Assembly (NCBI GenBank): GCA_963726745.1
Contig: CAVSDR010000006.1
Location: 1-64,000 of the forward strand
Length of the DNA stretch: 64,000 bases
Direction of reading: 5' to 3'
DNA from: an uncultured Verrucomicrobiae bacterium
GTDB lineage: Bacteria; Verrucomicrobiota; Verrucomicrobiia; Chthoniobacterales; UBA10450
The notes beneath the pieces were generated by a model. The model saw only the letters and a program-made list of their open reading frames with translations, did not search any database and had not been told where the DNA came from. Positions 1,881 through 63,651 of the stretch are shown here, one piece after another. Each line of letters begins with the position of its first letter. Position 1 is the stretch's first letter. The translations under genes and the position numbers were made by a program.

Positions 1881-2204
1881 TCGGGACGTCCGGAAAGCCG
1901 GGCGAGACGGGCAGGATTTTCGCAGGATTGAGTCGCACCGCTCGCAAAGATGCGAGGGCGCTTGAGCTAACGAGTGGGCCGAAAAGGGCCGAAAAAGGGC
2001 GTTTTTGCGAAAAGGCGTTGGACTGGCCTAAATACGGAAAAAGCGCGCGGGAGTTCTCGGATTTTTGTCGTTAGGCACTTTTTTTCACTTTTCCGGCGCG
2101 GTGGTGGCACGGCTGCTTTTACAAGGTCTCGAATCCGACGAGTCCCAGTAAGACCCGCCGGCGCATAAACGAAAAACCAACCAGAAAGAGAAAGAACCAA
2201 GAAC

Positions 2205-2825
2205 ATGATTGTAAAAGCATCTATCGAATGGCTTACGGCCATCTCCGACGCAGAACTCGCCAGCCAGACCGATAACATCGTGACGGCTGTCACCGGGAAC
2301 GCCAACTTCCCCATGCCCAGCCCGAGCCTGGGACTCATCAGCTCCGCCCTCGCGGAATTCCGCGCCGCGGTGGCCAACGCCGCCGGGGGCGGCAAGGAAC
2401 TGACCGCGATCAAGAACGCCAAGCGGGCCGCATTGGTCTCGCTCCTGCGCCAGCTCGCGAGCTACCTCACCATCACCAGCGCGCACGACCTGGCGAAGTT
2501 GCTCTCAAGCAAGTTCCCCAACCAGAAGCCGACCCGCACCAAGGTGGGCCAGCTCCCCGCCCCGGAATCGCCGGTGCTGCGCCAGGGGAAACCGTCCGGC
2601 CAGCTCGATGCCTCGGTCACGCCGGTCTACGGAGCTTCCTCCTATAACTGGCGCGTGGCCCTGGCTTCCGCTCCGGAGACCTACCTGCAAACCGCGCAGA
2701 CCGTCGGTGGCCGCACCTCCTTCAAGGGCTTAACCCCCGGGGAGTCCTACCTGGTCGAGGCCAACGCCGTCGGCGCCGAAGGCCCCAGCGATTGGAGCGA
2801 CGACGCGGAAATGATGGTGGTGTAA
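2205..2825 (+). CDS. Uncharacterised ~206-aa protein, helical N-terminus plus C-terminal fibronectin type III-like domain (paralogue of 17340..17954)
   Basis: C-terminal GLTPGESYLVEANAVGAEGPSDWS fits the FN3 pattern; AG-rich leader before ATG; no signal peptide visible. Confidence 0.8.
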   Translation: MIVKASIEWLTAISDAELASQTDNIVTAVTGNANFPMPSPSLGLISSALAEFRAAVANAAGGGKELTAIKNAKRAALVSLLRQLASYLTITSAHDLAKLLSSKFPNQKPTRTKVGQLPAPESPVLRQGKPSGQLDASVTPVYGASSYNWRVALASAPETYLQTAQTVGGRTSFKGLTPGESYLVEANAVGAEGPSDWSDDAEMMVV

Positions 2826-2886
2826 GACTACCACGACCGCAGCACAGCGCCCGCCGATAGACACGACGCGGCGCAAACAAAGGGAA

Positions 2887-2918
2887 GGCGCCCGAGGGAT
2901 CGGGCGCCGCTTTCGTTT
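2887..2918 (+). terminator. Probable intrinsic terminator after the FN3-like gene
   Basis: GGCGCCCGA-GGGA-TCGGGCGCC hairpin followed by GCTTTCGTTT. Confidence 0.6.
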
Positions 2919-60794: not shown

Positions 60795-62119
60795 GCCGGC
60801 AGGAGCGCGAGCGCGCGGTCGAGGCGCGCGAGGACTTTCTCGCGGCCGAGCACTTCCAGCAGGTGATAGAGGCTTGGGCCGGCGTTGCTCCCGGTCACCG
60901 CGAGGCGCGCAGGGTGCACCAGCGCGCCCACTTTCACGCCCAGGCTGGTAGCGATGGTTTTGAAACAAGTTTCGAGCGAGAGCGCATCGAAATGTTCGGT
61001 CTCGTCGAGTGCCTCGCGCAGCACGGTCAGCGGCTGGCGATTGGCCGGGACGAAATGCTTCGCCACGCCGTCGAGGTTGTAGGCAAAATCGTCATTGAAA
61101 TAGAAGCCGCCGTAAGCTGGCAGCTCGGCAAAGGTGCGCACCTTGCCTTTGCAGGTCTCGAGCGCCGCTTCCACATAGGCAGGCGCGAACGGCGCCAGAT
61201 CCACCCCGGCCCGGGCAAAGGCCGCGCGCGCCTCCGCTTGGAAGCGCTCCCCGGAGACTTCACGCAAATATTCGCCGTTCAGCCAGGTGCATTTCTCGAG
61301 GTCGAAGTGCGCGTTCTTGCGGTTGATGTTCTCGAGTTCGAAGAGCCCGACGACTTCCTCGAGCGCCAATTTCTCGCGGTCGTCCTTGGGCGACCAGCCG
61401 AGGAGGCAGAGATAATTCCGCACCGCTTCCGGCAAGTAGCCGCCCTCGATGTAGCTGGCTAAACTCGCGCCGGTGTCGCGCTTGCTCATCTTCGAGCCGT
61501 CCTGGTTCAGGATCAGCGGGATGTGCGCGAAGCGCGGCGGCTCCGCCCCGAGCGCGCGGTAGAGCTCGATGTGCTTCGGCGTGTTCGAGAGATGATCCTC
61601 GCCGCGGATGACGTGGCTCACCTTCATCTCGATGTCGTCGACCACGTTGACGAAATGGAAAATCCACGAGCCATCGGGCCGGCGAATGGTCATGTCCGGG
61701 TGCGTCTCCGGATTGGTCAGGTCGAAGTCGATCCGGCCGCAGACGAGATCGTCCACCACCACGTGCTCGCGCGGCGAACGGAAACGGGTCGCGCCGTTGT
61801 CCTCATAGAGATAACCAGCGTCCTGCAGCCGCTGCAGATGTTGCTGGTAAATCCCATCGCGCTGGCTCTGGAAATACGGCCCGCAATCGCCGCCGGCCTG
61901 CGGGCCTTCGTCCCAATCCAGCCCGAGCCAGCGCAGCCCGTCGTAGATCGCGGCCGCGGCTTCCTCGGTGTTGCGCGCCTTATCCGTGTCCTCCACCCGC
62001 AGGATGAAAGTGCCGCCGGTATGCCGTGCGTAGAGCCAATTAAAGAGCGCGGTGCGCGCGCCGCCGATGTGCAGATAACCAGTGGGCGAGGGAGCGAAGC
62101 GGACGCGGATGGGATTCAT
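60791..62119 (-). CDS. gltX: Glutamate--tRNA ligase
   Basis: RFAPSPTGYLHIGG, HVIRGEDH, KMSKR, anticodon-binding domain present. Confidence 0.93.
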   Translation of the reverse strand: MNPIRVRFAPSPTGYLHIGGARTALFNWLYARHTGGTFILRVEDTDKARNTEEAAAAIYDGLRWLGLDWDEGPQAGGDCGPYFQSQRDGIYQQHLQRLQDAGYLYEDNGATRFRSPREHVVVDDLVCGRIDFDLTNPETHPDMTIRRPDGSWIFHFVNVVDDIEMKVSHVIRGEDHLSNTPKHIELYRALGAEPPRFAHIPLILNQDGSKMSKRDTGASLASYIEGGYLPEAVRNYLCLLGWSPKDDREKLALEEVVGLFELENINRKNAHFDLEKCTWLNGEYLREVSGERFQAEARAAFARAGVDLAPFAPAYVEAALETCKGKVRTFAELPAYGGFYFNDDFAYNLDGVAKHFVPANRQPLTVLREALDETEHFDALSLETCFKTIATSLGVKVGALVHPARLAVTGSNAGPSLYHLLEVLGREKVLARLDRALALLPA

Positions 62120-62151
62120 GCGGCCCCTACCTTACCCGGACCGCTGACGGT

Positions 62152-63651
62152 TTAAAGCGGTGCCAGCGGCGACTCCGCCGGGCCGCCGATGACTTCGCCG
62201 GTCGGCTGGAAACGCGAGCCATGGCAGGGGCAATCCCAAGTCGTCTCGGCGGTGTTCCAGCGGACGATACAGCCCATATGCGGGCAGACCGCGGAGCGCT
62301 TGATCACCTTGCCTTCCGGCGTGCGATAGGCGGCAACCTTGCCGCTCTCGAGCTTGAGGATTTTCCCCTCGCCCGGCTTGAGCGCACGGACGGAGCTGCC
62401 CTCAGCGCGCGCGAAGTAACCTTTGATCAGGTGCAGCGGGTAATCCTTGTTCTCGAGCAGGTAGGTCCAGGCGCTGCCTTTGAGTTTCTTGCGCCCGGGC
62501 GCGAACAATTCCTGCCACGGATTTTTCGCACCCGTGACCCAATCCCGCGCCATCAATCCGCTGATTGTTCCAAAGGTCATGCCGTTGCCGGCGAAACCGG
62601 TGGCGATGAACTGCCGCTCCTCGTTCGGTCCGATATACGGAAGGCCGTCGGTGGTATCGATCACCTGGCCCGACCAGCGGAAGTCGATCTCCGCGCCGGG
62701 GAAAAGCTCACGGAATTCCTTCTCGAGCGCGCGGAAACGCGGCTCGGTTTTCCGCACCTGGCCAGTCTTGTGATCCTGCCCGCCCAGGATCGCGTAGTCG
62801 CCGCGCGCGCCTTCGTGGATCCGCAGATAGCTGTAGGGATCTTTCGTGTCCCAATAGGAAGCGATCGGCGCCGTCCCGCGCTTTAACGGCGCGCCCACGG
62901 CGTAGCTCGTGTAGAGCATCAGCTTCGTCTGGAAAAGCGCGGAGCCGGCCATCCCGCTCTCGCCCATGAGCGGATTGTGCGTCGCCAAAATCACGCGGTC
63001 GTACTTGATCTTCCGGCCATTCGCAGTTGCGACATGCTTCTCCGCGTCGAACTCCTCCACCTCGGTCTGTTCGAAGATCTGCGCCTTCATCGCCTGCGCC
63101 AGCCCCGCATAGTAGCGCCCCGCGTGGAACAGCGCCTGATCGGCGACGCGCACCCCGGGCTGTCCCATCAACGGCGTGGCCTCGACATAGGTGGCGTCAA
63201 AACCGAGTTCGTTCGCCAGGGCTGCGTCTTTCCGCAGGCTCGGCCGCTCGTCGCGCGTGCCACCATTGCGCGGCGCGTGCAGATAGCCGGGCACGCGCTG
63301 GAATTGGCACTCGAGCGCCTCCTTGCCCACGATCGCTTCGATCAAGTCGATCGCCGTCATCCCCGCATCCCAGGCAAGCCGCGCCGCGTCGCGTCCGAAA
63401 TTTTTCGCCAGCTCGTGCAGCCGGGTATCGGTCACGCAGGTCAGATGCGCGGTTGTGTGCCCGCTGTCGTGCGTCGCCAGGCGGTCGCGCTCCAGCAACG
63501 CCACCTTCAGGCCTTCTTCCGCGAGCAGGTAGGCACTCGTTAGGCCGGTGATTCCGCCGCCGACCACGAGCACGTCCACTTCGAGGTCTTTCTGCAGCGC
63601 CGGGAATTTTTTGAACTTCGCGGTCTCCAACCAATAGGGCGTCGTGTCCAT
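62152..63651 (-). CDS. FAD-dependent oxidoreductase with C-terminal Rieske [2Fe-2S] domain (YhfW-like)
   Basis: VVGGGITG; CPHMGC and WDCPCHGSRF. Confidence 0.92.
   Translation of the reverse strand: MDTTPYWLETAKFKKFPALQKDLEVDVLVVGGGITGLTSAYLLAEEGLKVALLERDRLATHDSGHTTAHLTCVTDTRLHELAKNFGRDAARLAWDAGMTAIDLIEAIVGKEALECQFQRVPGYLHAPRNGGTRDERPSLRKDAALANELGFDATYVEATPLMGQPGVRVADQALFHAGRYYAGLAQAMKAQIFEQTEVEEFDAEKHVATANGRKIKYDRVILATHNPLMGESGMAGSALFQTKLMLYTSYAVGAPLKRGTAPIASYWDTKDPYSYLRIHEGARGDYAILGGQDHKTGQVRKTEPRFRALEKEFRELFPGAEIDFRWSGQVIDTTDGLPYIGPNEERQFIATGFAGNGMTFGTISGLMARDWVTGAKNPWQELFAPGRKKLKGSAWTYLLENKDYPLHLIKGYFARAEGSSVRALKPGEGKILKLESGKVAAYRTPEGKVIKRSAVCPHMGCIVRWNTAETTWDCPCHGSRFQPTGEVIGGPAESPLAPL

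Follow-up and report, generated by a model that had tools for sequence, protein, structure and literature searches.

A 64,000-nucleotide stretch of an uncultured Verrucomicrobiae bacterium (contig C6, positions 1-64000, hereafter the window) and the genome to which it belongs (G000; 3.41 Mb, 7 contigs, 94.7% complete) carry many copies, on both strands, of two unrelated short DNA words: word A, with the core CTAACGA (extended form GCCTAACGAGTnnT), and word B, of about 18 bases (SAWNWYGYYGKCTAAWW). We propose, at a probability of roughly 45%, that A and B are recognition tags for biased DNA uptake or recombination, which would accumulate by drive and be served by two independent readers. Compared genomes are given G-numbers and genera of the family g-numbers, and gene coordinates come from a purpose-made simple gene caller.

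A first-pass annotation of the window had reported the heptamer as over-represented, with 43 exact copies, and our recount agrees with it in number and in every coordinate. The 22 copies reading CTAACGA on the forward strand lie within 1967..60670 (starts 1967, 4011, 4888, 9465, 10243, 14429, 15754, 22777, 23771, 24912, 28576, 29641, 35772, 39093, 40484, 41189, 44425, 49002, 52896, 53802, 58068 and 60664), and the 21 on the reverse strand, which read TCGTTAG on the forward strand, within 2068..63543 (starts 2068, 4491, 6446, 7852, 8430, 18537, 37298, 39735, 41981, 42152, 42176, 46384, 46697, 49872, 51404, 51648, 55103, 57564, 59859, 60645 and 63537). The annotation's expectation of about 4 copies by chance was sound: dinucleotide shuffles gave a mean of 3.59 and a maximum of 10, none of 100 reached 43, and the heptamer was the top 7-mer of the window under Markov models of orders 2-4. 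Its assumed GC content of about 65% was too high, the measured value being 62.6%. It had also given GCCTAACGAG as the usual context; this is indeed the commonest, but it accounts for just 11 of the 43 copies, and GCCTAACGA is present in 20. The proposed embedding through rare Leu codons was borne out, with 29 copies in genes, 12 of them as TCG-TTA-Gxx and 10 as CTA-ACG-Axx. Three features had escaped the annotation: the heptamer is the core of a motif of about 14 bases, the same window holds a second and more abundant word (B), and word A is the crossover end of the order's integron att sites.

Across G000, the heptamer occurs 2,025 times, at 0.45-0.70 copies per kb on all 7 contigs, with 1,559 copies in genes, 301 in intergenic DNA and 165 on boundaries. 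A codon-preserving null, which the annotation had named as a way for the signal to fail, left it intact: coding copies numbered 1,593 against 108 (maximum 128) in 20 synonymous-codon shuffles, a 15-fold excess, and the 9-mer was found 971 times in coding DNA against 13. The full motif reads G (90%) C (77%) CTAAC G/A A G (68%) T (47%) n n T (42%). Its core is sharp: GCCTAACGAG has 820 copies, most variants with one altered core base have 0-28 and the G-to-A variant has 93. The graded flanks are kept in 236 intergenic sites. Word A occupies both strands, all frames free of stop codons and intergenic DNA; it takes up 671 of 2,912 TTA and 313 of 1,356 CTA codons (23% of each) and, among stop codons, 189 of 933 TAA and 129 of 1,108 TAG. 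TCG-TTA-GGC encodes 447 of the 764 Ser-Leu-Gly tripeptides, which outnumber Gly-Leu-Ser (424), as Pro-Asn-Glu (253) outnumbers Glu-Asn-Pro (134). Between copies we found no homology beyond the word itself, and along the genome no regional pattern, the longest A-free gap (25 kb) being a low-GC stretch (58% GC). Copies on the G-rich and C-rich strands number 607 and 621, a lack of replichore bias that upholds the annotation's separation of this word from Chi and KOPS.

Word B was found from k-mer counts of G000 and has the motif S-A-W-V-W-Y-G-Y-Y-G-K-C-T-A-A-W-T-T, with degenerate, graded positions. The strict form (SAWNWYGYYGKCTAW) is present in the window 5 times on the forward strand (30581..60634; starts 30581, 38017, 39616, 57973 and 60620) and 7 times on the reverse (9063..60458; low coordinates 9063, 28117, 41338, 48138, 51045, 54891 and 60444). 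At a threshold of at least 14 bits, a matrix trained on G000 finds 53 sites in the window (4724..63895), where the rate after codon shuffling, 3.5 per 100 kb, predicts about 2, and 3,062 sites in the genome; coding DNA of G000 has 91 sites per 100 kb, and four relatives 1-4. Strict coding copies number 485 against 7 in shuffles. Word B shows no strand bias (993 versus 1,021 on the G-rich and C-rich strands), and its inverted pairs are only overlapping head-to-head ones, 5-7 bases apart. The strict count is 630 in G000 and does not exceed 22 in any of 354 other family genomes or 19 in any of 350 genomes of the class. Within the genus, the B core reaches 997 copies in G000, 346 in G011, 202 in G015 and 8-115 in the other 31 members, with G011 using a shorter dialect, YGTCGGCTAW without the upstream SA, in the 88 kb examined. 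None of 14 strict B sites is shared with G015, which suggests that most B sites are younger than the split between G000 and G015.

The arrangement of sites points to separate recognition of the two words. When sites were re-drawn at random inside their own genes (200 permutations), pairs 15-100 bp apart were depleted for A with A (16 against 54.8 expected; 0.29) and B with B (92 against 154; 0.60), and at expectation for A with B (262 against 258; 1.02). Up to 300 bp, the ratios were 0.57, 0.72 and 1.04. Among 1,089 7-mers of like abundance, the median ratio was 1.09, and the four lowest were all pieces of A. As A avoids A, B avoids B and the two are indifferent to each other, the pattern suggests two independent readers. 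Slippage between repeats is probably not the whole cause, since the B pairs are mostly non-identical. In effect, a single copy of either word appears to cover about 300 bp, and it does not stand in for the other word. A toy model, small and noisy, with separate readers and tracts of 200-400 bp reproduced the AA and AB pattern, and one with an either/or reader depleted AB pairs. A dependence of A spacing on orientation, with convergent pairs more depleted in G000, did not clearly replicate in relatives.

Word A belongs to one Chthoniobacterales family, presumably UBA10450 of GTDB; the 16S gene of G000 looks verrucomicrobial. Of 140 family genomes with a completeness of 90% or more, 139 are enriched in the word, as opposed to none among 177 genomes from 15 sister families: the 9-mer is found 22-4,633 times per family genome, a 200-fold range of density with 139 genomes above 44, and 0-44 times in the sister families. 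The related genomes in these tallies are not independent samples. The annotation's description of a lineage-specific dispersed signal thus holds, at the level of DNA and for the family. At the low end stands G108, with 22 A 9-mers and none of the words A, B or C (below) abundant, and no replacement word was found in 146 kb of it; with ComEC, pilins and the methylase described below, it is a natural negative control. In G265, the words TCGGGATGAC and GAGGGATCT are enriched, which we take to be parts of one repeated intergenic element.

Among 164 orthologue pairs of G000 and G015 (52% identical at four-fold sites), 15 of 26 G015 A sites are at the same position in G000. New A sites arise by substitutions in aligned codons, without gaps and often altering the amino acid. 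Identity between the two genomes is 0.68 at A codons and 0.65 at B codons, compared to 0.78 overall. A recA tree of the genus left 18 of 25 inner branches open and G011 unplaced, so we claim no order of events.

A third word, C (AAGATCGACA), came to light in G215, which has 60 A 9-mers and carries CAAGATCGACA instead (200 kb examined). There CAAGATCGACA is split 58/56 between strands, occupies five frames, exceeds codon shuffles 5.4-fold and has a sharp mismatch profile; word C has a sharp GATCGA core. Across 355 family genomes, C is abundant in 13-14 of 36 genera and reaches 4,653 copies: in 12 genera all sampled genomes have 522-4,653, and the counts are 155-1,474 in g25 and 45-800 in g54. 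Counts are low in g1 (5-40; G000 22) and in g4, g26, g27, g43, g45 and g52 (8-110); because a reversed-word control is near zero everywhere, these low-C genera are the better baseline. Genus g41 stacks C (2,673-4,653) with A (883-1,803 in the three genomes counted). Read backwards, C shares TGTCG with the B dialect of G011, a slight resemblance, on which B and C might be two dialects of one further system. All three words are non-palindromic.

Competence machinery is present in G000: ComEC, DprA, three PilB-type ATPases, PilC, major and minor pilins, a ComEA-like match in a short frame or fragment and, judging by their motifs, putative ComM-like and PilT-like genes. A run of G in the recA gene is one base too long, presumably through a sequencing error. 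Two paralogous minor-pilin trios end in DUF7305 pilins, one acidic and one basic (L027:16422-18933 on C3 and L032:9578-12130 on C6). A modelled DUF7305 pilin (pLDDT 81.6) has Thermus ComZ as its best match (E 7.9e-7, TM only 0.21), which suggests that these pilins are ComZ relatives. We considered several candidates for the readers. The ComZ-like pilin as a reader of A or C was set aside, as it was not found in G190, G265, G167, G196 or G215; its paralogue does not track B; and the stand-alone pilin at C3:918178 is acidic and major-pilin-like, with no separate orthologue seen in A-rich G265. Depletion of the words in pilin genes of G000 (A 1 against 7 expected, B 6 against 12) is not general, the loci of 33 relatives having 38 against 30 expected. 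Loss of competence genes does not account for low-A genomes either, ComEC being present in 5 of 5 and a major pilin in 3 of 3 of those tested.

Under the reading we favor, a sequence-specific reader would favor incoming fragments with the word, either at type IV pilus/ComEC uptake or at later recombination. A and B would then accumulate by biased gene conversion (molecular drive), and point mutations that create a word would spread at positions where the protein can bear the change. A short tract would need no more than one site, a second copy within about 300 bp adding little; in Haemophilus influenzae, two uptake signal sequences (USS) within 100 bp bring no extra uptake, according to the excerpt of PMC7811141 (all papers are cited here from excerpts). 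Given that neither word substitutes for the other, A and B would each have a protein of their own as reader, the two working independently or one after the other, with A the family-wide word and B and C clade-specific additions. The annotation had listed an uptake sequence, a nucleoid-protein site and a methylation- or repair-driven motif as possible mechanisms; sequence cannot decide among them, and an uptake-like drive appears to fit best.

Several observations weigh against this proposal. No reader of A, B or C was found among the candidates examined; for the kind of pilin receptor that goes with DNA uptake words (ComP or the predicted ComN), the ComP_DUS profile gave no match over the Pfam cut-off in G000. 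Genomes nearly without A also have ComEC and major pilins, so that possession of uptake genes does not set them apart from A-rich ones; four A-rich genomes yielded no ComZ-like pilin, which is present in 19/24 and 10/24 genomes of two families lacking A. Sharing of G000 A sites with G015 (15 of 64, 23%) exceeds the 10 of 104 for other CTAA words and lies inside the 0-30% range of six control 7-mers. Self-avoidance of A is weaker in relatives (0.70-0.73 below 200 bp in 740 kb pooled, and about 1.0 in G032 alone). The scale of about 300 bp is far below known recombination tracts (1.1-1.7 kb in Neisseria, 6.9 kb in H. influenzae), a difference that may stem from fragmentation of DNA in soil or from a repair-patch step. 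DNA uptake sequences (DUS) and USS characteristically form close inverted pairs in terminators (excerpt of 10.1101/2025.10.24.684340); for A such pairs are nearly absent, with 2 among 1,864 genome sites. One of these pairs lies in the window at 60645..60670; as it is inside a coding sequence of the glutaminyl/glutamyl-tRNA synthetase family (59121-60794), it is not a terminator. Finally, the proposal leaves the exact match of A to integron att ends, described below, unexplained.

The approximately 300 bp scale could instead be that of a repair patch. An orphan methylase would mark part of the word, and short-patch repair or uptake would favor the marked strand and so create and preserve sites, in the manner of HIP1 or of Campylobacter CtsM/RAATTY (precedents in PMC4390886 and PMC10046745). 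G000 has a suitable gene, an orphan N6/N4 methylase (PF01555; C3:981251-982042, L028:15251-16039), whose orthologues occur at 63-74% identity in all 4 family genomes tested, and in 1 of 11 genomes from other families, and the sharp GATCGA core of C would fit a methylase. The methylase is also retained at 67% identity in G108 and as a split orthologue in G051 (3 A 9-mers), both nearly without A. An 18-base degenerate, graded motif such as B is unlike a methylase site, and one methylase cannot explain three unrelated words. We consider this mechanism unlikely.

The graded, matrix-like specificity, the apparent conservation of A in position and the independent spacing, which fits two proteins, could also be read as sites of chromosome-organising or replication/repair proteins under ordinary selection, close pairs being redundant or harmful; a structural role has been proposed for HIP1 (PMC5861425). 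An essential structure is hard to reconcile with a 200-fold range of A density (22 to 4,633) and with the gain and loss of B and C by clade, and we saw neither a regional or replichore pattern nor a candidate protein. On balance, selected protein sites are an improbable explanation.

Word A is also related in sequence to integron recombination sites. The integron crossover core is named GTTRRRY. Read backwards, A is the sequence with which the att sites of the order end (TCTCG|TTAGGC). For attI the ending is TCTCG|TTAGRY; among attC sites, which were located independently of A through the L box, TAACGA is present in 45 of 56 rows (4 of the rows being duplicates), from family members and other genomes alike. 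We judge it very unlikely that this match is due to chance. G000 retains about 16 attC sites at C6:736300-745300 and an attI at 745282, and clustered A 9-mers in the three sister-family genomes examined for them are attC arrays. An integron integrase, or a tyrosine recombinase related to it, might act on word A. Alternatively, recognition of the crossover end of gene cassettes may have evolved first, in a reader whose word spread through the genome afterwards. An integrase gene was found neither beside the attC array nor elsewhere in G000, where the only tyrosine recombinases found are two XerC/XerD-like ones. Integrases scored over the cut-off in 29 of 61 genomes, in A-enriched and non-enriched families alike, so we rejected the integrase as the driver of A. 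In G000, 14 of 1,878 A sites are of attC type, none of them in the window, and the flanks differ, genomic A preferring GC before and T after the core and att sites RY and A/C. Landing sites of integrases show a GWT consensus only (excerpt of 10.1101/2022.09.11.507474). B is a weak fit to the attI L box, as 1 of 10 attI sites reaches 14 bits, and A and B are not paired at any fixed or att-like distance. The idea that A and B are XerC/XerD arms was dropped for the same lack of a fixed distance, and no dif site was identified. An integron connection in either of these two forms is, in our view, distinctly improbable.

Scattered frameshifts in the assembly (7 of 371 genes split, about 2%, probably through long-read errors) could invite a neutral explanation by codon or amino-acid bias, dispersed mobile repeats or assembly error, which we regard as next to impossible given the 15- to 70-fold excess over codon shuffles, the lack of homology beyond the word, the gapless origin in orthologues and the recurrence in 139 of 140 separate assemblies.

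A broader form of the tag proposal, possible though on the doubtful side, is a modular, combinatorial code of self-recognition, in which several unrelated words, A, B and C at the least, would have one reader apiece, would be gained, lost and stacked by clade and would gate gene exchange; integron cassettes, through their crossover end, may have been the source of A. No description of words A, B or C was found in the main texts of the open-access literature searched, and Neisseriaceae and Pasteurellaceae are the only groups for which the literature examined describes short unmethylated uptake words (further sources: PMC2397512 and PMC12616744). If the proposal is true, kin-biased gene exchange extends to a large uncultured family of soil Verrucomicrobia, a major free-living lineage. 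A natural experiment is offered by the presence of two independent words in G000, of a further word in sister genera and of the 200-fold range of density: the presence and absence of C and B by clade can point to reader genes, and spacing curves give a measurable tract length that bears on the long-standing question of drive versus selection. If the words are instead linked to methylation or the nucleoid, they still represent an undescribed genome-shaping system.

The survey tallies include ten unpublished genomes (G001, G008, G030, G035, G074, G106, G128, G194, G222 and G223). G106 belongs to the low-A set checked for ComEC and pilins; g42, among the 12 genera rich in C, is represented by G194 alone; and the recA tree includes G001, G008 and G030. 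No main claim rests on these ten. Among the sequencing runs listed for G000, one contained a small share of it and none was an RNA run; three runs compared with the genome gave short and divergent pieces, of no informative value.

Other features were noted in passing. The window begins with a type I methylase (HsdM) gene in two forward frames (57-539 and 484-1458), reflecting a sequencing error or a decayed restriction system; two further HsdM-like pieces are at C2:384690 and C4:371575. Directly after the gene lies a tandem array of 20.3 copies of a 21-bp unit (1461-1886), from which both window-enriched 8-mers GGGATATC and CAGAGGTT stem, so we discarded them as extra words, and further repeats of 53-139 bp follow at 2935-3458. 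A gene of the serine beta-lactamase family (PF13354; 11080-11931, reverse strand) stands beside a TamB/Omp85 pair. Elsewhere in G000, a metallo-hydrolase stretch is present on two contigs (C1:8880-9704 and C6:1031262-1032086), which suggests an assembly overlap or a duplication. GTAC (0.16 of expected) and CTAG (0.28) are strongly avoided across G000 and are also low in DNA from outside the family.

Compared to known word systems, A, B and C share with DUS and USS the basic form of a short non-palindromic word in hundreds to thousands of copies on both strands and restricted to a lineage; A adds a coding imprint beyond codon bias, frame bias, tripeptide enrichment and a genome with competence machinery. 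We nonetheless do not file them as members, as terminator pairing is nearly absent and the uptake role is predicted. The USS of Pasteurellaceae likewise have a non-palindromic 9-base core with weaker flanks, at about 1 per 1-2 kb on both strands, and are mostly coding with frame bias and tripeptide enrichment (PMC2817400); tripeptides of uptake sequences are about doubled in that account, which the excess of Ser-Leu-Gly and Pro-Asn-Glu parallels. The short invariant core and AT-rich tail of B resemble the long USS consensus (PMC1939737). Unlike USS, the words described here are of unrelated sequence and phylum, are built from the rarest codons and are stacked as two unrelated words in one genome, with almost no inverted terminator pairs. 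The DUS of Neisseriaceae are also family-restricted with clade variants (PMC3630211), word A is DUS-like in being scarce in a low-GC stretch, and the B core YGYYGKCTAA resembles GCCGTCTGAA as printed in PMC2817400. DUS dialects are, however, variants of one word in the sources excerpted, whereas A, B and C are separate words that co-occur, and G000 combines mostly coding words, without terminator use, with the lack of a ComP match over the Pfam cut-off. HIP1 of cyanobacteria and the Campylobacter CtsM/RAATTY system are similar in being hyper-abundant and coding, perhaps also in being conserved in place, with a family-conserved orphan methylase in the genome; A, B and C differ in being non-palindromic, and the methylase does not appear to track word density. 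Chi and KOPS are short, non-palindromic and over-represented as well, but strand-polarised (PMC5861425, for Chi), which A and B are not. Integron attI/attC cores are similar in sequence, A read backwards being the end of the att sites of this order. Genomic copies of A differ from these in having no L box, hairpin or cassette, and the sister families have the same att sites with no genome-wide enrichment of A.

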